DNA of 64,000 nucleotides from a virus, in UHGV virus genome UHGV-0033085. One strand, written 5' to 3'. The position numbers were made by a program, and so were the translations under genes. The notes below the pieces were generated by a model, which was not told where the DNA came from, did not search any database, and was given only the letters and a program-made list of their open reading frames with translations. Positions 4,411 to 64,000 of this stretch are shown here, piece by piece. Position 1 is the first letter of the stretch, and each line of letters begins with the position of its first letter.

Positions 4411-4419
4411 TCCTCTTTA

Positions 4420-4446
4420 AATGGCGCGTAAACCGCGCCATTTTCT
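4420..4446 (+). terminator. intrinsic terminator
   Basis: AATGGCGCG-taaac-CGCGCCATT hairpin followed by TTTC. Confidence 0.6.
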
Positions 4447-4454
4447 TATGCCCG

Positions 4455-4520
4455 ATAACAATTTGTTTTCTGCCTTTATCTTACTGCGATAATTACAACA
4501 ACAAGAAAACAACGTGTTTA
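4455..4520 (+). promoter_or_regulatory. promoter-operator module: ATAACAattTGTTTT (4455-4469), -10 GATAAT (4488-4493), AAAACAacgTGTTTA (4506-4520)
   Basis: Near-duplicate of the 945-1010 module, including the shared TTTGTTTTCTGCC string. Confidence 0.5.
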
Positions 4521-4537
4521 TTAGGTGGTGAAATAAT

Positions 4538-4690
4538 ATGGAATACATTGTTACTGTCGCTTCGTCAGATCGGGAGTCGTTACTTGAGGCTATCAGAAGC
4601 ATGGAAAACATCATCATGTCAGAGCAGGAGCTTAATGGTTATCTTGAGATGGATGATTTTTCTATCAAAATGGAGGTGAAGAATGACTGA
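4538..4690 (+). CDS. hypothetical small protein (50 aa)
   Basis: Not in ORF track (under 60 aa); AGGTGG RBS; stop overlaps next start (ATGA). Confidence 0.35.
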   Translation: MEYIVTVASSDRESLLEAIRSMENIIMSEQELNGYLEMDDFSIKMEVKND

Positions 4691-4964
4691 CTTCACCATT
4701 ACCCCTAAAGCACAAAATGTATTTCTTGAATCATGGCTGGACTTGCCGGAAACAGAACAGCAAGAAATGGATCATGTGGAATATGACGAGCAGGTAAGCA
4801 CGCGATTCTTCCACTTTGAGGGCTGCGTTTACGACATTGCCGACTTCATGCGAGATGACCGCTTCCCTGAATGGCACGCCAGTTATCCACTAAACGCCTT
4901 CGCCATGCTGATGATCCGTGTGGATGATTCAGGGGATACCATCGACATCGGTCTGCTCCACTAA
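4683..4964 (+). CDS. hypothetical protein
   Basis: ORF track; start overlaps upstream small ORF. Confidence 0.5.
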   Translation: MTDFTITPKAQNVFLESWLDLPETEQQEMDHVEYDEQVSTRFFHFEGCVYDIADFMRDDRFPEWHASYPLNAFAMLMIRVDDSGDTIDIGLLH

Positions 4965-4969
4965 AGAGT

Positions 4970-4993
4970 AAGGCCACCAATGCTGGTGGCCTT
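4970..4993 (+). terminator. conserved GC-rich hairpin AAGGCCACCA-atgc-TGGTGGCCTT (terminator-like, no U-run)
   Basis: Perfect 10-bp stem right after the stop codon; near-identical copy at 6039-6062. Confidence 0.4.
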
Positions 4994-5064
4994 AAATGAC
5001 AACACTTTGCCTTACTTCCTGATAGTAGCCTTATAAATCTTCTTTTTAGCCTATTTCATTCAGC

Positions 5065-5086
5065 GATAATTATCACATCGAAAACA
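5065..5086 (+). promoter_or_regulatory. GATAAT -10 plus AAAACAA half-site
   Basis: Same GATAAT-N10-AAAACA spacing as the other modules but only one half-site. Confidence 0.35.
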
Positions 5087-5101
5087 AACGAGGAATTAAA
5101 A

Positions 5102-6034
5102 ATGAAACCAGTATTTTTGGGACAAATTGACATTAGTGAATTGTTTTCAGTTAAAGATGGGTCCCAATATGACTGTGATTGCCTTGAACTTAATGGTCTT
5201 GAATATGAATACAGATTGGCTATTGTGAATGATGGTAAGAAGACATTTTCTGTCGAATGTTTTAAAAATACTTACTTTAAGCATGTGTTGAGAATAAGAC
5301 AGCGTGTGGAGATGTCAATTCGGGAAAACATCAAAAATAAATGTGAGTTTCTTGCGATTAAAAATGAAATAGATGCAATAAACTTTGTTACGTTCACTGA
5401 TAGTGGTCGATTGGCTATGCTGGAGCTATTTCATCTGATCGTTTCTAATAACAGTATAACAGAAGCCTTGATCAGTCTTTCAACTATAGTATCAAAAGAA
5501 AGAGAACACACTGGCGCTTTAATTGTAGAGAAGCTAGGTGGAATACTCGAGAAGATCAAAAATAAAGAGTTGATTATAGAATATGGCAAGGAAAGTAGAA
5601 AAAATAATTTACATTCAGCTTTTCGTTCCCCATATGTTGAGCGTTTAAATGGTTCGGCATCTTTTGTTAATTTAGAGTTTAATAGATTCTTTAGTTCTCT
5701 TTTTACAGAGTATGGAATTGTTATTGTGGAGGTAAATAATGAGAATGATGTGCCAAAAATCATAGTGCATTCGATGCCGGATATCCCTTTCAATGAGATT
5801 GAGAACAAACTGGAGATTTTAGACGATATAAATACAAAAAGCATGGAAGAACTCATAGAGTATCTGGCCGTAGATGCGGTAGCTATGGCTGATAATGATG
5901 TGTTTGGGGTTGGTGCACTGCATGAAGGCTATCTTGACGCCCTTGAACTTTACGGGACTGCTCGCTGGTTTCTGTCAGGATTAGTGGATGATGCGCCTTT
6001 ACTCATCAATACAGATTATTCTTATTCCAGTTGA
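5102..6034 (+). CDS. hypothetical protein (310 aa), AT-rich gene
   Basis: Long ORF with GAGG RBS; base composition clearly more AT-rich than flanks. Confidence 0.55.
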   Translation: MKPVFLGQIDISELFSVKDGSQYDCDCLELNGLEYEYRLAIVNDGKKTFSVECFKNTYFKHVLRIRQRVEMSIRENIKNKCEFLAIKNEIDAINFVTFTDSGRLAMLELFHLIVSNNSITEALISLSTIVSKEREHTGALIVEKLGGILEKIKNKELIIEYGKESRKNNLHSAFRSPYVERLNGSASFVNLEFNRFFSSLFTEYGIVIVEVNNENDVPKIIVHSMPDIPFNEIENKLEILDDINTKSMEELIEYLAVDAVAMADNDVFGVGALHEGYLDALELYGTARWFLSGLVDDAPLLINTDYSYSS

Positions 6035-6038
6035 AAAC

Positions 6039-6062
6039 AAGGCCACCAGCAGTGGTGGCCTT
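6039..6062 (+). terminator. conserved GC-rich hairpin AAGGCCACCA-gcag-TGGTGGCCTT
   Basis: Second copy of the 4970-4993 hairpin with a different loop. Confidence 0.4.
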
Positions 6063-6203
6063 AAATGACCATCCTGTTTCCCGCAGGCTAAAAACACCAA
6101 CCTCTTACCTCCAGGCAACCGACAAACCCACCTGTTCCCGTCCGGCTACCGCAACTTTCCACTTTGACGCCTTATTCGTACAACGATAATTAACACAAAC
6201 AAG

Positions 6204-6218
6204 AAAACAATTTGTTAT
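6204..6218 (+). promoter_or_regulatory. operator palindrome AAAACAattTGTTAT downstream of GATAAT -10
   Basis: Family member; TTGACG -35-like and GATAAT upstream; GAGGA RBS downstream. Confidence 0.45.
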
Positions 6219-6237
6219 TTACGATGAGGAATTAATC

Positions 6238-6720
6238 ATGAACTTTATCGCTACTGTAAACGCACCCGCACATGGCAATATCGCTGTAACGTTCTCTGAC
6301 ATTGAAAAACGAGTACTTGGTGCATGGCGCGACAATGAGACGGTAGAACTGTCAGCACAAGAAAAATGCATTATTGCACGCGACATCATTGGCAATCGTC
6401 GTTACTCGCGGGTATTTGAGAAAGCGTATGTGGTAAATTCTGGATTCGGAACGTTCGTCTTTCCGGTGCGCTCCGGGCGATTCTGCCAGTCCAAGCTGAT
6501 TGAGTTCGCTACGCAGATTTCTGTCTGGATTAAAACTCAATCGTCGTTCAAATTTTCCGACGATGAAGCAGTATCGCAGGGGATGCGGATCGCCAACAAT
6601 GCGATTAAATGCAAAAACATTACGTATACCGCTGGCGTTGACACATGGAAACTGTTTTGCGCTAACTTTATGCTGAATGTATACGCAAGCAACCGCATCC
6701 ACATCCTTGATGGCGTGTAA
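6238..6720 (+). CDS. hypothetical protein
   Basis: ORF track with RBS. Confidence 0.55.
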   Translation: MNFIATVNAPAHGNIAVTFSDIEKRVLGAWRDNETVELSAQEKCIIARDIIGNRRYSRVFEKAYVVNSGFGTFVFPVRSGRFCQSKLIEFATQISVWIKTQSSFKFSDDEAVSQGMRIANNAIKCKNITYTAGVDTWKLFCANFMLNVYASNRIHILDGV

Positions 6721-6729
6721 CTGAGAAGA

Positions 6730-6750
6730 GGGCCAGAAACGGCCCTTTCT
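6730..6750 (+). terminator. intrinsic terminator
   Basis: GGGCC-agaaac-GGCCC hairpin plus TTTCT. Confidence 0.5.
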
Positions 6751-6769
6751 CTATAGCCACCAGCTGCCG

Positions 6770-6890
6770 CAGGGAAATTTTCAGAAACGGCGAGGAACGT
6801 ATTCATGAGCCGACGGGGAACGGCCAGGATTTTTTCGGGAAACGGCTGCATTCGCCTTTATGTAGAAAAACATCGGGAAGCTGGTGGAAT
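6770..6890 (+). repeat. second iteron-like array (CAGGGAAA / CAGAAACGGC / GGGGAACGGCC / GGGAAACGGCTG / GGGAAGCTGG)
   Basis: Same repeat family as 2597-2733. Confidence 0.5.
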
Positions 6891-6972
6891 CCAACCAGCG
6901 GTTGTCGGACAGGTGAGCGGGGAAAATCATGATGACTTTCGTCGCCTGAGACATCCAGATTTCTTTCGTAGC

Positions 6973-7017
6973 ATAATCACATACGTGATTAAGTGGTGTG
7001 ATTATGTGAAAAATCAC
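6973..7017. repeat. cluster of inverted GTGATT / AATCAC hexamers
   Basis: ATAATCACATACGTGATTAAGTGGTGTGATTATGTGAAAAATCAC; five hexamer copies in 45 bp. Confidence 0.4.
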
Positions 7018-7311
7018 GCGCACATAATACGCGAGCGGATACGGAACAAAACAAAATGCCGATCCGCGCCGACAAATAAACGCGGATCATAAAGCAAGAC
7101 TAAAAGCCAATGATTAACCATACTCTATAGCGCAATATAACGCGTTTTAAGCGCGTTAATATGTTAAGTAATGGGTATGTACTGGTAAGGATATAAAAGC
7201 GCGTCTATGGCGTTATTTTGGCGCTTATTTTTATGTTGTTGGAGTGAGTTAAAGACAATAAAAAACGCGCTAATGATGGCGCGTTATGGTGGGAGTATTG
7301 GAAACGAAAAA

Positions 7312-7330
7312 AGCGCCCATAGTGGGCGCT
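7312..7330 (-). terminator. terminator hairpin AGCGCCCA-tag-TGGGCGCT for the leftward operon
   Basis: Hairpin flanked by A-run and T-run just past the stop of 7336..7566; identical copy at 7820-7838. Confidence 0.55.
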
Positions 7331-7335
7331 CGATT

Positions 7336-7566
7336 TTATTTGTGTAAACTGATTTTAAATCCCATTTCTACAAACGCTTTTAACATTAAAAATATATCAG
7401 CGTCGTTCACGTCTGCTTTTTTTCGCTCCTGGTCGCTCAATAAGTCAATTTTGCGCGTCGTTTCATCTATAAGCTCGACTGCGCGCCCAGCGTAACCAGC
7501 GATCCCAGCGATGCGATTAACATAATATTCATTATGGACGTTAACGCCAGCGATAAGAACAAACAT
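7336..7566 (-). CDS. hypothetical protein
   Basis: ORF track; AAGGAG RBS. Confidence 0.5.
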   Translation of the reverse strand: MFVLIAGVNVHNEYYVNRIAGIAGYAGRAVELIDETTRKIDLLSDQERKKADVNDADIFLMLKAFVEMGFKISLHK

Positions 7567-7586
7567 GATTAAGCTCCTTAAAAAAA

Positions 7587-7802
7587 TTAAATAGAATTTT
7601 GAAGTTTTCCGATTAATGCGCTTAAACGTAAGTATTCACGTTTGCGCTTGCAATCTCGCTTGCTGTTAAGCAAATCAGAAAACGTAAAATTTAATTGGTC
7701 GCGTTGCGCGATCAAATCATCGATTAATTCCAGTTTATAAGCGCGATACTTTGCGCGATACTTTGCGCGATACTTTGCGCGGATCTTGTCATAGCTGACC
7801 AT
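7587..7802 (-). CDS. hypothetical basic protein with AKYR tandem repeat
   Basis: ORF track 7587..7847 shortened to the ATG at 7800-7802, which has an AAGGAG RBS; upstream codons would read through a terminator hairpin. Confidence 0.45.
   Translation of the reverse strand: MVSYDKIRAKYRAKYRAKYRAYKLELIDDLIAQRDQLNFTFSDLLNSKRDCKRKREYLRLSALIGKLQNSI
7741..7782 (-). repeat. 12-bp tandem repeat GCGCGATACTTT x3.5 inside CDS
   Basis: Encodes the AKYRAKYRAKYR segment. Confidence 0.6.
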
Positions 7803-7819
7803 TTTTAAAGCTCCTTTAA

Positions 7820-7838
7820 AGCGCCCATAGTGGGCGCT
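7820..7838 (-). terminator. second copy of hairpin AGCGCCCATAGTGGGCGCT
   Basis: Immediately past the stop of 7851..8501. Confidence 0.5.
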
Positions 7839-7850
7839 TGATTCCATTAA

Positions 7851-8501
7851 TTACGCTTTAAAAGCATCAGCTAAATAATTGTAGAAATCATTCTTGATAA
7901 AGCGATATTGCTGTGTACCAGCTTTGGCGCTTCCCATTCCTTTGACTTTCTCAACAAGTCCGAGACGTTCGCAAAGATTGATTAGCTGGTTAGCTTGAGT
8001 ATAGCCAGCGTCCAATTTAATTTCACACGCTTTTTTAGCTTCATTCATTAAATCGAAAACAGCGCCATTCGTGAACGTGTCGATCTCGTCGTTAATCATA
8101 TCGATTAAAGCGAATACACGAGATCCAGACATATCAGCGATGGAATAAACGCATTTACCAGATTTAATTGATTTAACCAGATAAACCAGTTTTTCCAGTG
8201 AATAACTATTAGTCATAGCATCACGAAAAAATACTTCTGGCGCTTGTTTGCTTGCTTTAATCGCATAGTAGAAAACAGAGCACAATTTTTCGTCTTCTAC
8301 AGCGTTTACAACGTTGTTGATGAAGTAAGCAAGTTTAGTGGTCGCAGCTTGCATATTTGCTTTGTCTGCTTTAGTGTGCGTACCATTTTTATAATGTTCG
8401 TTATATGTTTGAGTTGCTAGATCTGCTTTTTCGCGCAGCTCGTCGGATACAATAGATGCAGCTTCAATGATGGACTTTTTAGAAATGATAATGTTAGCCA
8501 T
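7851..8501 (-). CDS. hypothetical protein (216 aa)
   Basis: ORF track; AAGGAA RBS. Confidence 0.55.
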   Translation of the reverse strand: MANIIISKKSIIEAASIVSDELREKADLATQTYNEHYKNGTHTKADKANMQAATTKLAYFINNVVNAVEDEKLCSVFYYAIKASKQAPEVFFRDAMTNSYSLEKLVYLVKSIKSGKCVYSIADMSGSRVFALIDMINDEIDTFTNGAVFDLMNEAKKACEIKLDAGYTQANQLINLCERLGLVEKVKGMGSAKAGTQQYRFIKNDFYNYLADAFKA

Positions 8502-8763
8502 GATTTTATTCCTTAGTATAAATATTAAAATTTAACTCAAGAAAGAAAGTGTTTTGCACTCGTTCCTGATGCGTTCAATTATCGACACGCGAAAAAAGAT
8601 TGCAAGTATTTTTTTAAGTTTTTTGCAGGGATGAAAGTCCTAGAAATAAAAGCGAGATCGTCGAAGGTGTTCCCTAAATAAATAATAAATTCCGGCTTTT
8701 GACCTTATATATTTATACGGGGGAGAATTGAATGAGTGTTAAACGAATGGCATGTAAAATAAT

Positions 8764-39941: not shown

Positions 39942-42900
39942 ATGTGGTACAGGGAAGGTACTATCACATTTACACAGGGCAGCAATACTCTGGTTGGGGC
40001 AGGGACAGCCTGGAACGTAACAGCTAATGGTGTGTTGCCGGGGATGATCGTCATTGGCCCCGACAACAAGCTGTATGAGATCAAGCGCGTAACCAGTGAT
40101 ACGAACATTGTTCTCTCAGAACCTTATACCGGCGAAACTCAGTCTGAAGTTCCGTGCCGAATCATTACGACCTATGAAGGCGACTTAACACAGTTTAGCG
40201 CGCGCTTTACTGCACTAATGTCGCGTATGTCGGCTGATTCAAAGTCCATGCGCAGTTGGTTGACTGCTCTGGATGAGGTGACAATCGAGCGTGAAGACGG
40301 TACAGAAGTGACCGTTAAGCCGCTAATGCAGATCGTCAACGAGCACAACGAAAACGTTGAGTGGTATAAAAATAACACTGACGCGATTAATGCTGCTGGC
40401 GACAAAGCTCGTGAGGCGGCGGCCAGTGCTGCCGCAGCAGCCGAAAGCGCCAATACCGCTGGAGAAAAAGCCTCTCAAGCGTCTCAAAGTGCATCCGCTG
40501 CGGCATCTTCACAAAGTGCTGCAAGTGCGAGTGCAACTGCTGCGAAAAAATCTGAAACGAACGCAGAATCAGCACATCTAGCGGCAGCAGAATCAGCGTC
40601 TGTAGCGTCGACCAAAGCATCGGAGGCAGCAACATCTGCGTCCAGTGCCTCTGCATCTAAGGATGCAGCCAAAGCATCAGAGACTAACGCTTCATCGAGT
40701 GCAAACGCGGCTGCATCATTTGCAACAGAAGCTGAAAATTCGTCTAAGGCAGCAAAAGCGTCAGAGACAAACGCAAAAGCATCTGAAACGGCAGCCGGGC
40801 AGAGTGCATCGTCTGCAAACAGTTCGAAATCTGCGGCAGAAGCGTCAGCAAGCGCAGCCTCAGCAAGTGCGGATAGTGCTTCATCAAGTGCAACTGCGGC
40901 AGGAAAATCTGCGGATAGTGCATCGTCATCAGCGACAATAGCTACCACAAAAGCGACAGAGGCGACAAGTCAGGCTACAGCTGCTAAAAATTCAGCATCG
41001 GCAGCAAAAACCTCTGAAACAAATGCAAAGGTCTCAGAAGACAATGCGGCTTCCTCTAAGGCGGCAGCTGCTGAATCTGCAAGTTCTGCGTCTGCATCAG
41101 CCACCTCAGCATCCGCTTCAAAAGATGAGGCGACCAAGCAGGCATCAGCAGCGAAGGGTAGTGCTTCAACGGCATCCACGAAAGCAACAGAGGCGGCAGG
41201 TAGTGCGACGGCTGCATCTCAGAGCAAAGCTGCTGCTGAATCCGCTGCGACCCGTGCAGAAGCTGCCGCTGATCGTGCTGAAGAGATCGCCGGTGCAGTT
41301 GCGATGGAAGACGCAAGCCTTACCACCAAAGGTGTTGTGAAACTTAGCAGTGCTGTCGATAGCACCAGTGAATCGCTGGCCGCAACGCCAAAGGCAGTTA
41401 AAGCAGTCAATGACAATGCGAACAGCAGGGTGCCATCTAACCGAAAAATTAACGGGAAAGCACTGACTGCGGATATCACATTAACGCCGAAAGATATTGG
41501 TACTTTAAATTCAATAACGATGTCTTTCTCTGGCGGGGCCGGGTGGTTCAAACTGGCTACTGTTACAATGCCACAAGCGAGTTCCATCGTTTACATCGCA
41601 TTGATTGGTGGCGCTGGTTACAACGTCGGCTCCCCACATCAGGCAGGCATTTCAGAACTGGTTCTACGAGCAGGCAATGGAAACCCCAAAGGGATTACAG
41701 GTGCTTTGTGGAAGCGTACAGCTGTCGGATTAACGAATTTCGCCTGGATCAACACATCCGGCGATACATATGATATTTACGTTGAAATTGGCAATTATGC
41801 GACGAGTGTAAATATCCATTGGGATTGTACTGCAGATGCGTCAGTTTCTATTTATACATCGCCAACATATTCAGCGAGTAAGCCTTCCAGCGTTACCGAT
41901 GGTGTTGTTTATACGATGTATAGCACACATCAGAAACCTACACCATCAGATATTGGAGCACTGCCAACAACCGGAGGAACAGTTTCAGGTCCGTTGTCTG
42001 TTACAGGTGGATTAACTGGTTCATTGAATGGTAATGCAAGTACAGCCACGAAATTGCAGACGGCAAGATCTATCGGTGGAGTTGTTTTCGACGGTTCTGC
42101 AAATATTAACCTTCCAGGTGTAAACACTACGGGTAATCAGAACACTACTGGTAATGCTGCAACTGCTACAAAACTTCAGACTGCAAGAAAAATATCCGGT
42201 GTTCCATTTGATGGTTCTACTGATATCACTTTAACCGCTGCGCATGTTGCCGCTTTCGCAAGAAGGGCAACAGGGTCATATGCGGATGCTGATGGTGGCG
42301 TTCCCTGGAATGCCGAATCAGGCGCTTACAATGTCACCAGCTCTGGCGAAAGCTATATTCTGGTTAACTTCTATACCGGAGTCGGAAGTTGCCGCACCCT
42401 GCAGATGAAGGCACATTACAGAAATAGAGGTCTGTTCTACCGTTCTTCAAGAGACGGTTATGGTTTTGAAAGTGGTTGGGAGCAGGTTTACACGACTGGA
42501 TTTATGCCTCAGCCGGCTGATATAAACGCACCAACCGCTGCCGCTGGATGGTTAAATAGTGGTAACGGAACGGCATTTACGACTGCTCAATTTATAACTT
42601 GGCTAAATAATCAGGGGGCATTTACAAACAAACATTGGATCGCACGGTGCTCATGGACTTACGCCAACAATAATTATATAGACGACACTGGTTGCGGTAG
42701 GATCGATCTATCTGGTTCCGTGATTGAGGTGTTTAGTAATAAGGCAACAAGCCACTACACTATTCGTGTTACAACGACAACAACATCAGGTCATGGTGGT
42801 GTTAATAATGCGGAATTTATTTATGTGTACAATGGGAGTGATTATGCGCCAGGCTGGCGTCGTTCTTATAACACTAGAAACAAACCAACAGCTTCTGATG

Positions 42901-43841
42901 TAGGAGCATTACCGCTTTCAGGTGGCACATTATCTGGAGGGTTGACGTCTTCTGGTGAGATCGTTTCAAAATATGCAAATGGTTTCCGCATTGCTTACGG
43001 TAACTATGGGTTCTTTATCCGTAATGACGGCGGAAGCACATATTTCATGCTAACAGCATCAGGAGACACATTAGGTTCATGGAACGGTTTGCGACCTATT
43101 ACAATTAATAATACCAGCGGTGCTGTATCAATTGGTAATGGACTAAATGTTACTGGTGGCGTAAATGGTAGTTTGAACGGTAATGCTTCAACAGCCACAA
43201 AATTGCAGACAGCAAGGAAAATTGCTGGTGTGGCGTTTGATGGCTCTGCCGATATTACTTTGACTGCGGCTAACCTTAATGCTTATACGAAAACAGAGGT
43301 AACAAACCTTCTAAGTTCCTATGCAAGCAGATCATCACTGACAGGCTATAGTGGCAACCTGGATATTATTGCTGAAACACTGGTTGTCAAATCAGGCGGT
43401 AGTGGAGGGTTTGCTATATGGGATATTGGCACAACTACTAGCGGTGCCAATATGTACATTGATCCAAACCCAGGTATCAATACAGTTTGGCGTTCAACAT
43501 CTTCAAGGCGCTATAAAAAGGAAATTGAAACATTACAAGATCGATATGCTGATGAACTTTTGTCATTAAGACCTGTTTGGTATCGTTCAATTTGTCGAGG
43601 TGACCGAAAGGATTGGGGGTATTACGGCCTTATTGCTGAAGAGGTTGGTGAGATTGCCCCGCAATATGTCCATTGGCGTGAACCAACAAATAATGATTCT
43701 CCAGAAGATATTTCCTCAAATGGTATGGTCGCTGAAGGGGTGATGTATGAGCGTTTGGTTGTACCACTCATTCATCATATTCAGCAATTGACCAAAAGGG
43801 TTGAGGAGCTTGAAACGAAGTTAAATTCACCTAAAGAATAA
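39942..43841 (+). CDS. tail fibre protein with Ala/Ser-rich repeats and C-terminal intramolecular chaperone (peptidase S74-like)
   Basis: Low-complexity A/S/E/T/K repeat region; C-terminal ...YGLIAEEV... block typical of self-cleaving chaperone domains. Confidence 0.8.
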   Translation: MWYREGTITFTQGSNTLVGAGTAWNVTANGVLPGMIVIGPDNKLYEIKRVTSDTNIVLSEPYTGETQSEVPCRIITTYEGDLTQFSARFTALMSRMSADSKSMRSWLTALDEVTIEREDGTEVTVKPLMQIVNEHNENVEWYKNNTDAINAAGDKAREAAASAAAAAESANTAGEKASQASQSASAAASSQSAASASATAAKKSETNAESAHLAAAESASVASTKASEAATSASSASASKDAAKASETNASSSANAAASFATEAENSSKAAKASETNAKASETAAGQSASSANSSKSAAEASASAASASADSASSSATAAGKSADSASSSATIATTKATEATSQATAAKNSASAAKTSETNAKVSEDNAASSKAAAAESASSASASATSASASKDEATKQASAAKGSASTASTKATEAAGSATAASQSKAAAESAATRAEAAADRAEEIAGAVAMEDASLTTKGVVKLSSAVDSTSESLAATPKAVKAVNDNANSRVPSNRKINGKALTADITLTPKDIGTLNSITMSFSGGAGWFKLATVTMPQASSIVYIALIGGAGYNVGSPHQAGISELVLRAGNGNPKGITGALWKRTAVGLTNFAWINTSGDTYDIYVEIGNYATSVNIHWDCTADASVSIYTSPTYSASKPSSVTDGVVYTMYSTHQKPTPSDIGALPTTGGTVSGPLSVTGGLTGSLNGNASTATKLQTARSIGGVVFDGSANINLPGVNTTGNQNTTGNAATATKLQTARKISGVPFDGSTDITLTAAHVAAFARRATGSYADADGGVPWNAESGAYNVTSSGESYILVNFYTGVGSCRTLQMKAHYRNRGLFYRSSRDGYGFESGWEQVYTTGFMPQPADINAPTAAAGWLNSGNGTAFTTAQFITWLNNQGAFTNKHWIARCSWTYANNNYIDDTGCGRIDLSGSVIEVFSNKATSHYTIRVTTTTTSGHGGVNNAEFIYVYNGSDYAPGWRRSYNTRNKPTASDVGALPLSGGTLSGGLTSSGEIVSKYANGFRIAYGNYGFFIRNDGGSTYFMLTASGDTLGSWNGLRPITINNTSGAVSIGNGLNVTGGVNGSLNGNASTATKLQTARKIAGVAFDGSADITLTAANLNAYTKTEVTNLLSSYASRSSLTGYSGNLDIIAETLVVKSGGSGGFAIWDIGTTTSGANMYIDPNPGINTVWRSTSSRRYKKEIETLQDRYADELLSLRPVWYRSICRGDRKDWGYYGLIAEEVGEIAPQYVHWREPTNNDSPEDISSNGMVAEGVMYERLVVPLIHHIQQLTKRVEELETKLNSPKE
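40390..41300 (+). repeat. low-complexity Ala/Ser-rich coding repeats in tail fibre gene
   Basis: Reiterated SETNAKASE-like units; source of many spurious overlapping ORFs. Confidence 0.6.
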
Positions 43842-43901: not shown

Positions 43902-44156
43902 ATGAGCTATGGTGCACAGGTATGGTCGCCATCAAGACAGGAGATGGTCGATGCGTTGGCCCCTGTTTATTACCTCGATTATTTTACTCCCTCTGGTTCT
44001 GGAAGTAGAACATATGAGGTTGAGGCGGGATTGGGAATCGACTATTACATAATGGACGTAACCAATGGGAAATACACAAGTCTTACGGTTTCTGGAAATA
44101 CCATTTCATGGTCTGGAGCTAGTGGCAATTTAAACATATTGGTTTTTCAAAAATAA
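43902..44156 (+). CDS. hypothetical small protein
   Basis: ORF with AAGGA RBS; first of three coupled small genes after the fibre. Confidence 0.4.
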   Translation: MSYGAQVWSPSRQEMVDALAPVYYLDYFTPSGSGSRTYEVEAGLGIDYYIMDVTNGKYTSLTVSGNTISWSGASGNLNILVFQK

Positions 44157-44458
44157 TGTACGGAAGCAAGATATATCGATCTGACGGGAAGGTCTGGATG
44201 TCTCCTTCTTTGTCTCCTATCGTTTTTCAGAGAAAGCAGGTTGTTTCTTTGTCTGGCGGGACAGAGTTTAACACCCAAATATCTCCAGATCGTTCACCGA
44301 TGATTTTTGTTGCCTATTCGAAAGCTGTTTCATTAATAGCCAACAGAATAGTGCGTAACAACCAGGTGATTTACAGTTTCGGAGGTCAGGGTAGCGACTC
44401 TAGTGCCACGATATACGTATTTTCGAAAGGTATAGCCAAAAAGAAACTTGGGGCATGA
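44156..44458 (+). CDS. hypothetical small protein
   Basis: ORF; start overlaps upstream stop. Confidence 0.4.
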   Translation: MYGSKIYRSDGKVWMSPSLSPIVFQRKQVVSLSGGTEFNTQISPDRSPMIFVAYSKAVSLIANRIVRNNQVIYSFGGQGSDSSATIYVFSKGIAKKKLGA

Positions 44459-44763
44459 GTTTTTTCAATGCGCGAGGAGAGGAGATCTATAATACGGCAA
44501 ATATCCCACTTTCATTTACCTTTCTTAATAATACGGAGTGGAACAGTTCTGGAGGGCATGTTTTTGATTACCCGCCAGCGATAATCCCAACATATGCAAA
44601 TGTGTTCGCGGTTCCAGTACCGGGCGGGGCCATGACAATGGTTTATGGATATGCGGCATATGGAAATACTGTTAGTTCCATATTCGTAAACCAACTTAAT
44701 GGCGGCCATAGTTTTAGCGTAAATGGCAGAGTACCGGTAATAAATAGAAATCTGTATAACTGA
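44455..44763 (+). CDS. hypothetical small protein
   Basis: ORF; ATGA overlap with upstream gene. Confidence 0.4.
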   Translation: MSFFNARGEEIYNTANIPLSFTFLNNTEWNSSGGHVFDYPPAIIPTYANVFAVPVPGGAMTMVYGYAAYGNTVSSIFVNQLNGGHSFSVNGRVPVINRNLYN

Positions 44764-57549: not shown

Positions 57550-57636
57550 GGGGAGTTAGTCCGTAGAGGTAGCGGTGTAGACTGTAAATCTACTGTCATG
57601 GCGACTCGGGTGGTTCGACTCCATCACTCCCCACCA
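57550..57636 (+). tRNA. tRNA-Tyr (anticodon GTA), type II
   Basis: Acceptor GGGGAGT/ACTCCCC, anticodon stem GTAGA/TCTAC with loop CTGTAAA, long variable arm, TTCGACT T-loop, encoded CCA. Confidence 0.8.
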
Positions 57637-57716: not shown

Positions 57717-57717
57717 A

Positions 57718-57806
57718 CACAACAGGTAAGTGCATTGGGCGAATCGGCGATACTGACCCACAAGCCCGTAAATCGATAGAGTCAGACCAGTGCTCTTACC
57801 GTTGTG
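57718..57806 (+). repeat. long stem-loop element C (CACAACAGGTAAG ... CTTACCGTTGTG)
   Basis: 12-bp arms around about 64 nt, immediately after tRNA-Thr. Confidence 0.55.
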
Positions 57807-57857
57807 AGGAAGTGCAGCTCTTTGAGGCAACCAGAAGATAAGCATCTGGCTTCACAA

Positions 57858-57936
57858 CACAACGATAAGATCATTACGGTTAATCGTCGTTCATGTGCAC
57901 AATGACTGGTCGAAAGGTAGTGATCTTACCGTTGTG
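57858..57936 (+). repeat. long stem-loop element D (CACAACGATAAGA ... TCTTACCGTTGTG)
   Basis: 13-bp arms with one mismatch around about 53 nt. Confidence 0.55.
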
Positions 57937-58080
57937 GTGGATTCGCAGACTGATGCGATAGCTTTCTTGGATGTTAGGGAAATGCGGCCGCAAATCTTCC
58001 CTTTCGCGAGCGGTGATCGTCCGTAGTCCTAATTGGCTGCACCGTATGCCGGAGATTCAGTACCGGCCACCACAACGGCC

Positions 58081-58167
58081 GGAGAGTAGGGAGCATGGTG
58101 CTCAAGCGGTCTTGAAAACCGTCCCATTGCGCAAGCGATGATGGTTCGATTCCATTACTCTCCGCCA
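58081..58167 (+). tRNA. tRNA-Ser (anticodon TGA), type II
   Basis: Acceptor GGAGAGT/ACTCTCC, anticodon stem GCGGT/ACCGT with loop CTTGAAA, 17-nt variable arm, TTCGATT T-loop, discriminator G, CCA. Confidence 0.8.
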
Positions 58168-58247: not shown

Positions 58248-58389
58248 ATAGACAATTACGGCAGACGTTCTTAACCATAGCTTGCTAACATCCTAGCAAC
58301 ACTTTTTTTCAGCGCAAAATTCAAAGGGGCTTCGGCCACTTTTTTTGCAACTGAAAGAGTCAAGTCTACGAACTTTGTAGGAAGAAATA

Positions 58390-58740
58390 ATGACCAGCAA
58401 AGAGAACACACCACTAAAAGTCACCCCTGAACACATTGAACAACTCATTCAAAGTGAACATTATTTCACTGCATATGATGCCAGCCACGGGGATAACTTC
58501 ATCTCTGTTTACAATTCAAAAACAGATATCGACAAAGGTCATGAGTCGTTAAAACTCTTAACGTTCTGCGTTATGGTTCTCAAAAATGGATATACCGTAA
58601 CGGGAAAATCTGCGTGCGTAAGACCAGAAATCTTCAATTTTGATGTTGGTCGCGAGTACGCTCGAAAAGATGCTATCGATCAAATCTGGCCCCTGGAAGG
58701 CTATCTCCTGAAGCAAAAGTGGCATGAGGCAAAGCAATGA
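58390..58740 (+). CDS. hypothetical phage protein (N4 gp49-like, tentative)
   Basis: ORF with GGAAG RBS; C-terminal ...IWPLEGYLLKQ block. Confidence 0.45.
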   Translation: MTSKENTPLKVTPEHIEQLIQSEHYFTAYDASHGDNFISVYNSKTDIDKGHESLKLLTFCVMVLKNGYTVTGKSACVRPEIFNFDVGREYARKDAIDQIWPLEGYLLKQKWHEAKQ

Positions 58741-58982
58741 CGATCACTATCTACGGATGAGATAACTGCTCATACTGCAAACGTGCGGTCGAGCTGGCGA
58801 AGCAACTAAAGGGACATGGCTACGGTGATTATGAGTACATCGACATCACCACTGCCGGTATCAACAAGGAAAAACTAAGTGAAATTGTTGGTAAACCGGT
58901 AGAGACTATCCCCCAAGTGCTGATCGATGGCCAACCGATTGGCGGATACACAGAACTGGCTGCATACGTCAGCACCCTCTGA
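58737..58982 (+). pseudogene. Grx1-like glutaredoxin interrupted by in-frame TGA at codon 8 (58758-58760)
   Basis: Translation MTITIYG*DNCSYCKRAVELAKQL...GKPVETIPQVLIDGQPIGGYTELAAYV has the glutaredoxin fold signature; the stop sits where Grx1 has the Arg of GRSGCPYC. Confidence 0.6.
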
Positions 58983-59061
58983 TTTTAACGGCTCACAGGA
59001 GCCGTTTTTATTCCCACCAAACTCACTCCCGTTTCCCTTAAAATTCAAAAAACAACGTCAA

Positions 59062-60296: not shown

Positions 60297-60677
60297 AGAC
60301 TTTATGGCCTCAACAACCTTTTGTGATGCGCCTTTCTCTTTACCGAATCGCTCGTTATATGCAGCAAGAACCTGTTTTTCGTCCTCGTTAAGAGGAGCGG
60401 TGCCTTCTTTGTATAAAAATGCTGCGAGTTCAGGTTGGCGTTCTTCCAGCACCATCATCATAAGACGACTTGGCTCAATACCCAGCGCCAGCGCCAACGG
60501 ACGAACCTTATCGATAGGCAAAGGAATTTTGCCACTTTTAATTAAAGAAAGGTTGTTGGCATTTTTATAACCAATAAGTCTGGCTATTTGGGCCTGACTC
60601 ATAGGTGAGGATTCAATCAGCCCTGCGATAAAAGCAGCATAGCGACTTTCTATAAATTCAATCTTGTTGTCAGACAT
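60291..60677 (-). CDS. XRE-family helix-turn-helix regulator
   Basis: HTH segment MSQAQIARLIGYKNANNLSLIKSGK; convergent with integrase. Confidence 0.7.
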   Translation of the reverse strand: MSDNKIEFIESRYAAFIAGLIESSPMSQAQIARLIGYKNANNLSLIKSGKIPLPIDKVRPLALALGIEPSRLMMMVLEERQPELAAFLYKEGTAPLNEDEKQVLAAYNERFGKEKGASQKVVEAIKSL

Positions 60678-60708
60678 TGTTACAACCTTTGCGCGTTCAA
60701 TTCTCTCT

Positions 60709-60722
60709 GGTAAGTGCTTACC
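60709..60722. promoter_or_regulatory. palindrome GGTAAGtgCTTACC upstream of the XRE regulator gene
   Basis: Perfect 6-bp arms 32 nt upstream of the regulator start; further GGTAAG / CTTACC copies follow in the AT-rich divergent region. Confidence 0.4.
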
Positions 60723-60927
60723 GATATTACATCAAAGGTTAGGGTTGTAAAGCTATTATCATTTTTTCGATAGGCACTTAAAAGACCGGTTAAAGGCCAT
60801 TGCACGGAGAAAAATTAGCCCAAAACAGGTAAGAAAATTAACTTGCATATGATATGAATGTATTCAGTATTGATATAAATTTTAGTAGTATTCCTTACCA
60901 TAGTATAAGTTAGAATGGATTGATTGA

Positions 60928-61140
60928 ATGAACACCACTATTTCCAGCCTAATCGCTCTTGAGATCGGACACGTACAGAAATTAGCTGATGAGTGTGTAG
61001 CTGACATCCTCACCGATCTACCGAATGAGCAGATTCAGGTTGGTGTGAATGACACAACTGGCTTTATATTCGAACTTAACAACAAACGCTTCACGCTTCT
61101 CAATATCGGCTCCGGGTCTTTAGCCGTCAGAATCTGTTAA
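60928..61140 (+). CDS. hypothetical small protein
   Basis: ORF track; no clear RBS. Confidence 0.3.
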   Translation: MNTTISSLIALEIGHVQKLADECVADILTDLPNEQIQVGVNDTTGFIFELNNKRFTLLNIGSGSLAVRIC

Positions 61141-61152
61141 CCCCTCTTCTCC

Positions 61153-61185
61153 CTGCGCGAATGGCTTAGTTCCCTGTTCGCGCAG
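61153..61185 (+). terminator. hairpin CTGCGCGAA-N15-TTCGCGCAG (possible terminator)
   Basis: 9-bp perfect stem, no U-run. Confidence 0.35.
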
Positions 61186-61206
61186 TGCTACATTAAACAC
61201 AGTAGT

Positions 61207-61221
61207 AAATAATTTGTTTTC
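61207..61221 (+). promoter_or_regulatory. degenerate operator AAATAAtttGTTTTC upstream of vWA gene
   Basis: Right half-site matches the AAAACA-N3-TGTTTT family; followed by AAGGA RBS. Confidence 0.3.
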
Positions 61222-61238
61222 ATAACAAAGGATTAGCC

Positions 61239-63347
61239 ATGTCTAAAAAACGTTCCATCAAAGAGGTTCAGGACTTCCGTGACAGTGTAAAACGAGTAGT
61301 CGCTCTCCTTTCAGGTAAAAACATCCCTGTTGCAGAACGAGGGGACGACGCTTATGTACGCTATAACGATGATGGAGAGCCAATTCTCGTAAACATCCCA
61401 TCAATCCCGGATAACGCAACACCGGCATTGATGAATGCTGTGCGCGGATTTCTCGATCATGAGGTTGCTCACATTTTGTTTACCGATATTCGTGTGTCCA
61501 ACAAAATGAGAGAAAAAGGACGCGTTCCTTCCTGGTCGCTATGGAATGCCTTAGAAGACGTGTTCATCGAGCGAAAAATGGGTCAGGTCTTTAACGGAAC
61601 AAGACGTAATCTGATGGCAACTCAGCGCCTTATAATCGAAAAAGTCTTTAAACCAAAGGCTTCAGAGGCTATTGCTTATTGTGGCAAAGATCAGCGCGCG
61701 CTTTTTCTAAACTTCTTTCTCTGTCCGGTTGTAAGAGCCTGGGATGGCCAAGCACCGTTCGTAGATTTCATGGATGAACATTGGCCTGTCATTGAGAAAC
61801 CAATTTCATTATTAAAAGAACATGGTATCGATGTGGCCGTGCGTAACATGTCTTGCACCGAGGATTGTGTAAAGGTGGCTGCGACCATAGCTAAGATCCT
61901 CAAAGACACTGAAAGTGAAAGCAAAGGTAAGGAGTCAGCTCCGGGAAAAACTTCCGATCCTTCAGACGCTGACCAGACGGATGCCTCTGGAGAAAACAAT
62001 GAAGACAACGAAGATCATGAGACACCCTCAGCGTTAGATAATCACAAATCTATCAAATCAGAATCACATAGTAAGTACAAACATGATAATAACGACAGTG
62101 ATGATTCAGATAATTCTGAATCATCAGAAACAATATTCGATGATACAGAAAATGATAAAGAGGTATCAGATTCTGATGCTTCTGATAACGCGGCGTCAGA
62201 ATCATTAACCGCTGACCACGAAAAAAGAAAAACGACAGAAGACGGCTCTTCAGATATCCCAACTCCGTCAAAAATGAGTCTGGAAGAGGCTTTAGAGGAG
62301 TTGGATAGCATGGAAGATGAAGTCGGAGGCATGACAGAAGATGCGCTATCCGAAACGATTAAAAGCGAGTTAACAGAAAGCTCGAAAAGCGAATACAGGC
62401 CATACAATCGCTCATACGACTTCATCGGCTCGATTGATCAGGCAGAAGCCCATATCAAACGGCTTATTAAAACATTCTCCGATATTGATTTGGGAGGATA
62501 TCCAATCAGCCGCTATCGCATCGTTCCTGAAGGCAACCAGCTCTTCGACAAATATATTGAAAAGCATCTTTCGTCAGGTGTTTCGTCGACGCTGGCAAAA
62601 GACCTGGAGCGAGCAATAGCAAGCAGAAACAGAGTTCAGTTTATACCGGGCCAGCGTCGGGGGCGCATTCATGGTTCTAGTATCTACAGATTAGCAATGA
62701 ATGATGCTCGCGTGTTTCGTAAAAAAGAAGAATCTAAAGCCGTTAACGCCTGTGTTCAACAAGTGATTGATTTATCAGGTTCAATGAGTGGTATAACGAT
62801 TAAACTGGCTCTTGCAAGTGCATATACCATCGCCGATGCCCTTGATCGAATAAATGTTCCCAACATTATCACCGGCTTCACTACATTTGGTAGTCATATG
62901 GCGGCAGGAGAACTTAAGGCTGTCAAGTATGAGTTCTCTCGCTTTGAATCTTTAATGCTACCTATCATCAAAAATTGGAATGAAAAGGTAAATTCTCGCG
63001 AAGTTCGCTCACGTATGGGGTGCGTAGGCTACACATTCCCACTTCTTAATAACGTGGATGGTGAAAGCATAGCCAGCCTTGCATCGTTATTTTCCGGTCG
63101 CTTGGAGGACAGGAAGATCATGCTTGTTCTGAGTGATGGCGCGCCGTGGGCTGTTGGGAGAGGTTTTGACGCTCATTTGCGTTCAGTTGCGAAGCAAATT
63201 GAAACGCAGACTGATATTGATTTGATGGCAATTGGCATCATGACTGACGCACCGGAGAGATTTTACTCAAATCATGCCCTGGTAACGAGCGTTGATAGTC
63301 TTGGTTCATCTGTAGTTACTGAACTATCTCGTATCATTTTAAAGTGA
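61239..63347 (+). CDS. von Willebrand factor A domain protein with acidic linker (CobT-like)
   Basis: MIDAS-like DLSGSMSG motif; long D/E/S-rich acidic segment. Confidence 0.7.
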   Translation: MSKKRSIKEVQDFRDSVKRVVALLSGKNIPVAERGDDAYVRYNDDGEPILVNIPSIPDNATPALMNAVRGFLDHEVAHILFTDIRVSNKMREKGRVPSWSLWNALEDVFIERKMGQVFNGTRRNLMATQRLIIEKVFKPKASEAIAYCGKDQRALFLNFFLCPVVRAWDGQAPFVDFMDEHWPVIEKPISLLKEHGIDVAVRNMSCTEDCVKVAATIAKILKDTESESKGKESAPGKTSDPSDADQTDASGENNEDNEDHETPSALDNHKSIKSESHSKYKHDNNDSDDSDNSESSETIFDDTENDKEVSDSDASDNAASESLTADHEKRKTTEDGSSDIPTPSKMSLEEALEELDSMEDEVGGMTEDALSETIKSELTESSKSEYRPYNRSYDFIGSIDQAEAHIKRLIKTFSDIDLGGYPISRYRIVPEGNQLFDKYIEKHLSSGVSSTLAKDLERAIASRNRVQFIPGQRRGRIHGSSIYRLAMNDARVFRKKEESKAVNACVQQVIDLSGSMSGITIKLALASAYTIADALDRINVPNIITGFTTFGSHMAAGELKAVKYEFSRFESLMLPIIKNWNEKVNSREVRSRMGCVGYTFPLLNNVDGESIASLASLFSGRLEDRKIMLVLSDGAPWAVGRGFDAHLRSVAKQIETQTDIDLMAIGIMTDAPERFYSNHALVTSVDSLGSSVVTELSRIILK

Positions 63348-63363
63348 ACAAAACAGCCTTAAC

Positions 63364-63380
63364 GATAAGTAACCACTTAC
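63364..63380 (+). promoter_or_regulatory. TAAGTA box (GATAAGTAACCACTTAC)
   Basis: Family member 60 nt upstream of ATG 63443. Confidence 0.35.
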
Positions 63381-63442
63381 GATATATAATGATATATTTA
63401 TATAAGAAGTTGAACGCTCATTAGAGAACAAAGGAAAAACGC

Positions 63443-64000
63443 ATGACGACTACTGCACTGCAAAATGAAAAAAATCCTTCTGATTACCTTGTTTGCAAGT
63501 GGTGCGGCAAATCATTTCACTATTTTAAGTCCCATGTAGCCAATGGTAATTGCGAGGGCATTCCTGAGTCAGTAAAAGATGCCGATCCTGACACCGTACT
63601 GAAAATGTACACAACGCAGTTTCCAGATGAACCAACGCTATCGAAAAAGGCACTTGATGCAATTCAAGCTAAACGTGCCGAGCAAAAAAGCGAAATGGCC
63701 AAATCTTCTGGCTTGACCAGTAGCCCTGGCTACACAGGCACAGTTGAGTACAAGACAGATCTGGTCGCAGCTCACGAACTGCTAAACGTAACAGTGGAAG
63801 AACTCGGAACAAAACGTGGGACGCCGCTCATGGTTAGCGTCAACGTCAATACGCCGTATCCAGAGTTCGTTCCCGAAGTGAAGAAAGGCTACGTATATGG
63901 CGACTTCGAACTGATCAAAGATATTTTCATGATGCTTGAACTTGGCATACCTGGCTATTTGTGGGGTCATGCAGGAACAGGCAAATCGTCATTGCCTACA
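63443..64000 (+). CDS. AAA+ ATPase, MoxR/CobS-like (3-prime end outside window)
   Basis: Open to window end; N-terminal CxxC...C motif then Walker A GHAGTGKS; absent from ORF track because no stop in window. Confidence 0.7.
   Translation, partial: MTTTALQNEKNPSDYLVCKWCGKSFHYFKSHVANGNCEGIPESVKDADPDTVLKMYTTQFPDEPTLSKKALDAIQAKRAEQKSEMAKSSGLTSSPGYTGTVEYKTDLVAAHELLNVTVEELGTKRGTPLMVSVNVNTPYPEFVPEVKKGYVYGDFELIKDIFMMLELGIPGYLWGHAGTGKSSLPT

Follow-up and report, generated by a model that had tools for sequence, protein, structure and literature searches.

The locus described here raises a single question: why does a phage-borne glutaredoxin gene carry an in-frame TGA at its eighth codon, just ahead of the codons for its active site? 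The gene (grx) lies in a 64,000-nt stretch of viral DNA (UHGV virus genome UHGV-0033085), referred to in full length as the window. A first-pass annotation made from the letters alone had offered three readings of it, namely a recent pseudogene, a sequencing error, or UGA read-through or recoding, and had proposed comparison with orthologous genes and a search for further in-frame TGA codons as means of choosing among them. We compared the locus with related plasmids, phages and metagenome contigs, and we consider it very probable that a dispensable accessory gene has recently acquired a heritable nonsense mutation and is now an ordinary young pseudogene.

Genomic context of the interrupted gene

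On sequence similarity, the window is assigned to the SSU5/pLF82 ("Cyrano")-like phage-plasmids of E. coli. Identity over the region is 97% with Escherichia phage Cyrano (OV696614) and pLF82 as well as with many non-mobilizable E. coli plasmids of ~100-125 kb, and phage Cyrano has been placed among the SSU5-like phage-plasmids (PMC9928086). Over 25 kb, the nearest relative with a complete sequence is NZ_CP023851.1 (97.3% identity), and the matches to the window in complete E. coli genomes are all plasmid-borne, with none on a chromosome. The conserved gene order in NZ_CP023851.1 runs through DNA ligase, small ORFs, tRNAs, gp49, GrxA, integrase, a repressor and a CobT-like protein, and its annotation places nrdB, thymidylate synthase and dihydrofolate reductase elsewhere on the same replicon.

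The gene upstream of grx on the + strand (58390..58740) encodes a gp49-family protein of 116 aa, recognized by a profile match to Phage_gp49_66 (PF13876, E = 3e-29) and 100% identical to WP_000200984.1 of NZ_CP023851.1. Its TGA stop is overlapped by the grx ATG as ATGA, a junction that implies, as far as its sequence can indicate, translational coupling from the gp49-family gene to grx. Directly 3' of the grx stop, a consensus scan picked out an intrinsic-terminator-like hairpin and T-run on the + strand (58987..59014), in which an 8-bp stem with 5 GC pairs (58987-59006) is followed by TTTATT, the whole being a pattern match only. With such a hairpin behind it, grx probably closes its transcription unit, in which case a premature stop within it should exert no polar effect.

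The tRNA genes preceding the gp49-family gene differ among relatives. An additional tRNA-Tyr (anticodon GTA, 57550-57636) lies between tRNA-Asn and tRNA-Thr in the window lineage; it is also found in two contigs of the same clone (L027 and L029) and is absent from Cyrano and NZ_CP083502.1, so that tRNA content varies within the SSU5/pLF82-like phage-plasmid family. The 364-nt spacer between tRNA-Thr and tRNA-Ser (57717-58080) yielded no tRNA call and no Rfam match at E <= 1; the corresponding spacer is 8 nt long in Cyrano and similar to that of the window in NZ_CP083502.1.

Several further features were recorded along the element. Positions 1-858 of the window hold the 3' part of metG (methionyl-tRNA synthetase), the protein being 100% identical to residues 392-677 of the NZ_CP023851.1 copy. 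Among the large genes, the one that diverges most from its NZ_CP023851.1 counterpart is the tail-fibre gene at 39942-43838, with 77% aa identity and 73 gaps over most of its length and 95% identity in its C-terminal part, a pattern that suggests, at the sequence level, the swap of a host-range module. Beside the tail-fibre genes, a run of five A residues in the window faces six in NZ_CP023851.1 at 44437, and by this difference the 188-aa CDS homologous to CRT34_RS27375 (44156-44763) is broken into a pair of ORFs, 100 and 102 aa long, that overlap. The difference may be genuine, as a frameshift or through phase variation, or one of the two records may contain a homopolymer error. Contig L026, which is identical to positions 60449-64000 and runs beyond the window end, contains a DNA polymerase III alpha gene (dnaE-like, 4411-8723 of the contig) that is split into ORFs of 787 and 389 aa by a 244-aa HNH_3/NUMOD3 homing-endonuclease ORF, whereas dnaE of NZ_CP023851.1 is unsplit (1172 aa). 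The split may reflect a mobile intron or the insertion of a free-standing endonuclease.

Reading frame and family assignment

The grx gene occupies 58737..58982 on the + strand (81 codons plus stop) and is broken at codon 8. Translated in frame from ATG 58737, it reads MTITIYG, a stop, DNCSYCKRAVELAKQLKGHGYGDYEYIDITTAGINKEKLSEIVGKPVETIPQVLIDGQPIGGYTELAAYVSTL and a second stop; the residues that follow the TGA begin with DNCSYCKRAVELAKQLKGH and run to LAAYVSTL, and the closing TGA stop lies at 58980-58982. The premature TGA is at 58758..58760, and the CSYC active-site codons (codons 11-14, 58767..58778) begin two codons beyond it, paired in alignment with CPYC of E. coli Grx1. In the frame after the TGA the first ATG, GTG or TTG is a GTG at codon 61, and the sole near-cognate start before that is a CTG at codon 20, which is 3' of CSYC. 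As no start falls between the TGA and CSYC, reinitiation would be unable to rescue the active site. Re-translation thus bore out the earlier description of the frame, of its ATGA overlap and of a TGA at codon 8 ahead of CSYC, along with the statement that no downstream start restores the fold.

For the family profile searches the window protein was used with codon 8 filled, i.e., with Arg restored. The repaired protein matched the Pfam Glutaredoxin profile PF00462 (E = 7.9e-11, 42.4 bits against a cut-off of 22.9) and the NCBIfam model NF008401, 'GrxA family glutaredoxin' (107.7 bits, with a cut-off of 84); its score on the narrower TIGR02183 model, 86.1, fell short of the 106.5 set there as cut-off. 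The alignment to E. coli Grx1 (1EGO; E = 3.6e-21) covers the whole length of the protein. In this alignment YGRDNCSYC of the window pairs with FGRSGCPYC of 1EGO, so that the TGA position corresponds to Arg8 of Grx1. Both the CxxC motif (CSYC) and the glutathione-site motifs are present, ETIPQV and IGGYTE of the window aligning with ETVPQI and IGGYTD of 1EGO. The earlier reading of the gene as a Grx1-like glutaredoxin with an Arg expected where the TGA stands is therefore upheld by the 1EGO alignment and by NF008401. What the window copy lacks, owing to the TGA at codon 8, is a full-length open frame for the thioredoxin fold; judged from its sequence, it belongs by ancestry to the GrxA family and to the large group of orthologs found in SSU5/pLF82-like phage-plasmids, and its expression is not predicted.

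Codon 8 in relatives

Codon 8 was read in 22 relatives outside the TGA lineage, comprising 21 fetched loci (Cyrano, CMS-2020a, NZ_CP083502.1 and 18 IMG/VR contigs) and a Klebsiella homolog (L002), and it was CGA (Arg) in all 22. The 21 fetched loci without exception have GGA CGA at the position of the TGA, and every full-length copy of grx among the relatives translates as an intact 81-aa ORF. Arg8 and the segment around it, YGRDNCS[YF]CKRAVELAKQL, are invariant down to the Klebsiella homolog, which is 75% identical. Cyrano has CGA at the site and is otherwise near-identical to the window in the 5' half of grx, and NZ_CP083502.1, a single nucleotide apart from the window over 611 nt, encodes a protein 100% identical to the repaired window protein. 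A gp49 protein of exactly the window sequence occurs in 2,772 blocks of an assembly collection; 10 further contigs were sampled through this identical protein and judged by their gene calls, and an 81-aa glutaredoxin gene was called adjacent in 10 of 10.

Since CGA is ancestral in all 22 relatives read, one C-to-T transition accounts for the TGA, which is accordingly a nonsense mutation specific to the window lineage. The first-pass annotation had pointed out that CGA and TGA are a single transition apart, and the comparison of orthologs that it proposed found grx intact in every relative examined outside the clone.

Carriers of the TGA allele

The allele was absent from the isolate-derived collections searched. 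An 81-nt probe centred on the TGA matched 202 complete E. coli plasmids and 318 plasmids of PLSDB, none of them exactly (best match 98.8%, one mismatch), a 38-mer containing the TGA, ATCACTATCTACGGATGAGATAACTGCTCATACTGCAA, had none in JGI metagenome contigs or GTDB representative genomes, and a degenerate codon-level TGA pattern had no match in IMG/VR. Carriers were found by looking up contigs that encode exactly the integrase of the window. All four ENA metagenome contigs with this integrase have TGA at codon 8 and an identical downstream frame; a contig found via the CobT-like protein was too short to span grx. The four contigs come from two Hadza gut samples, MERR22-1 and ERZ27286953, and represent at least three ENA assemblies or sample sets and different assemblers, their names following three styles (NODE_ with coverage, scaffold_ and k141_). 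In none of the four was a gene called between gp49 and the integrase.

Over 3.5-5 kb, three of these contigs match the window at 100% identity, as does a fifth contig from further downstream, and the fourth departs from the window sequence by a single SNP at 58258, outside grx, and by scaffold Ns. Across the 3.5-6.2 kb that were compared for each contig, the carriers thus show no more than 1 SNP. The TGA allele is real and inherited, and it belongs to one very young clone, the near-identity of its carriers being what marks it as young. That same want of divergence makes the intact downstream ORF uninformative as to whether grx is a neutral pseudogene or a maintained gene.

Sequencing error, recoding and read-through

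A true C at 58758, with grx intact, was suggested by the presence of CGA in all database relatives, and a difference of one base, missing from every isolate-derived collection searched, is what such an error would look like. Yet the TGA is common to four independent ENA contigs from at least three sample sets with three naming styles, and gene callers independently left the interval between gp49 and the integrase uncalled, so that an error is ruled out as a candidate and we regard it as highly improbable. Programmed recoding, whether by insertion of selenocysteine, by a tRNA that decodes UGA or by a reassigned code, is given next to no probability. What speaks for it is the closeness of the TGA to a redox-active CxxC motif and the tRNA-Ser gene at 58081-58167, which reaches 46.6 bits on the Rfam tRNA-Sec model, nearly the gathering score of 47 and above its score on the general tRNA model. 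The anticodon of this tRNA is UGA and not UCA, however, as given by the tRNA call and by the anticodon loop in the Rfam alignment (CUUGAAA vs CUUCAAA in the tRNA-Sec model), which rules out a tRNA-Sec identity and agrees with the earlier statement that the tRNA reads UCN codons and not UGA; the match most likely reflects the long variable arm. None of the four tRNAs in the window (Asn-GTT, Tyr-GTA, Thr-TGT and Ser-TGA) has anticodon UCA or would otherwise read a stop. Moreover, the UGA aligns with Arg8, for which homologs have CGA, and not with a catalytic Cys or Sec. Folding of the 65 nt that start at the TGA gave -13.3 kcal/mol, where shuffled sequences averaged -13.7 (z = 0.17), with no sign of a SECIS or stimulatory structure, and an Rfam scan found no relevant element at E <= 1 downstream of the TGA. 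A small hairpin 10 nt past the TGA was rejected as a SECIS candidate, as it shows no stability beyond that of shuffled sequence and is also present in CGA-bearing relatives, in which the sequence 3' of codon 8 is the same. Nor is UGA reassigned elsewhere in the window: when the 125 annotated CDS of NZ_CP023851.1, with the IS3 transposase entry left out, were mapped to it, 67 mapped, and grx alone contained an in-frame stop (0 of the 66 others). Only annotated CDS entered this count; with ORFs taken from all six frames of a relative, many spurious stops turn up in frames that are non-coding. Stop usage in the 60 mapped genes with aligned ends was TAA 41, TGA 14 and TAG 5, and the upstream neighbour of grx, which finishes 18 nt before the premature stop, likewise ends in TGA. 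The search for other genes with in-frame TGA, on which the recoding option had been made to depend, thus came back empty among the 66 other conserved genes mapped.

A third alternative is that the TGA is a leaky stop kept by selection, at which tRNA-Trp would permit a low or condition-dependent read-through that is useful in tuning glutaredoxin dosage; this we consider unlikely. In E. coli K-12 no stop is leakier than UGA, a G in the position next to it is reported to lower termination accuracy, and read-through of UGA inserts Trp and, less often, Cys (PMC11126739). The context of the premature stop is TGA-G, and beyond it the ORF is intact in each of the five copies. A trace of full-length product with Trp (or Cys) at position 8 is possible on these sequence grounds, at most. 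Against selection for such a product stands the confinement of the TGA to one near-identical clone, in which intactness carries no information, and the absence of a stop at codon 8 from every other homolog examined, diverged ones included. Trp or Cys would replace an Arg that is invariant from the phage-plasmids to E. coli Grx1 and lies beside the active site, which argues against a maintained expression strategy, and the z-score given above leaves no stimulatory structure downstream. The more particular proposal that basal or stress-enhanced read-through (at low temperature, in starvation or at low pH) supplies a small dose of a Trp8 glutaredoxin under selection is, in our estimation, very unlikely; if true, it would tie expression of a phage-plasmid redox gene to the translational fidelity of the host. 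Of the three options first put forward for this locus, then, the recent pseudogene stands, supported by the one C-to-T difference from CGA-bearing relatives, while sequencing error falls to the four TGA contigs and recoding to the intact orthologs and the lack of other in-frame stops.

Discussion

The reading that we prefer, a young nonsense allele, corresponds to a unitary pseudogene: a single disabling change separates grx from the intact copy in NZ_CP083502.1, and the same allele recurs in four independent contigs. Apart from the TGA the ORF is undamaged, as expected for a very young allele. The relatives' gene encodes an 81-aa dithiol glutaredoxin, apparently coupled to the gp49-family gene and followed by a putative terminator. 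Most plausibly, by analogy with known glutaredoxins, its normal role is that of a glutathione-dependent electron donor, the likeliest recipient being the class Ia ribonucleotide reductase carried by such elements. In the window lineage, a C-to-T transition turned Arg codon 8 (CGA) into TGA; ribosomes would then stop after the heptapeptide MTITIYG, leaving the CSYC site and the thioredoxin fold unmade, and we infer from the sequence that the window copy is functionally null. The loss would be tolerated because Grx1 and thioredoxin are available from the E. coli host.

Nonsense pseudogenes of recent origin are familiar among the accessory genes of mobile elements, and the TGA matters little for biology. 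It does indicate that an SSU5/pLF82-like glutaredoxin can be lost without halting the circulation of the element in human gut communities, and this continued circulation fits the view of grx as accessory and dispensable. The codon-8 TGA also provides a clean single-nucleotide marker for one phage-plasmid clone in several gut metagenomes, and the locus should be of use as a negative control when phages are scanned for stop-codon recoding.

Phage T4 NrdC is a phage-encoded glutaredoxin/thioredoxin that reduces the phage ribonucleotide reductase. The window gene resembles it as a phage-borne small thiol-disulfide reductant that, to judge by the nrdB gene of a relative, probably shares its genome with nrd genes located outside the window; the likeness is one of functional analogy only. 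The resemblance to E. coli Grx1 (GrxA; PDB 1EGO/1GRX) extends to length class (81 vs 85 aa), the dithiol CxxC site, the Arg8 position and the conserved motifs, which are TVPQ and IGGYT in Grx1 and TIPQ and IGGYT in the window gene; unlike Grx1, with its CPYC site, the window gene has CSYC, a phage-plasmid location and the TGA at codon 8. Closest of all are the intact glutaredoxins of SSU5/pLF82-like elements (WP_024219260.1 in NZ_CP083502.1 and CYRAN_42 of Cyrano), which share the gp49-grx-integrase order and the ATGA overlap, are 91-100% identical in amino acid sequence to the window gene, and have CGA at codon 8 and an intact annotation.
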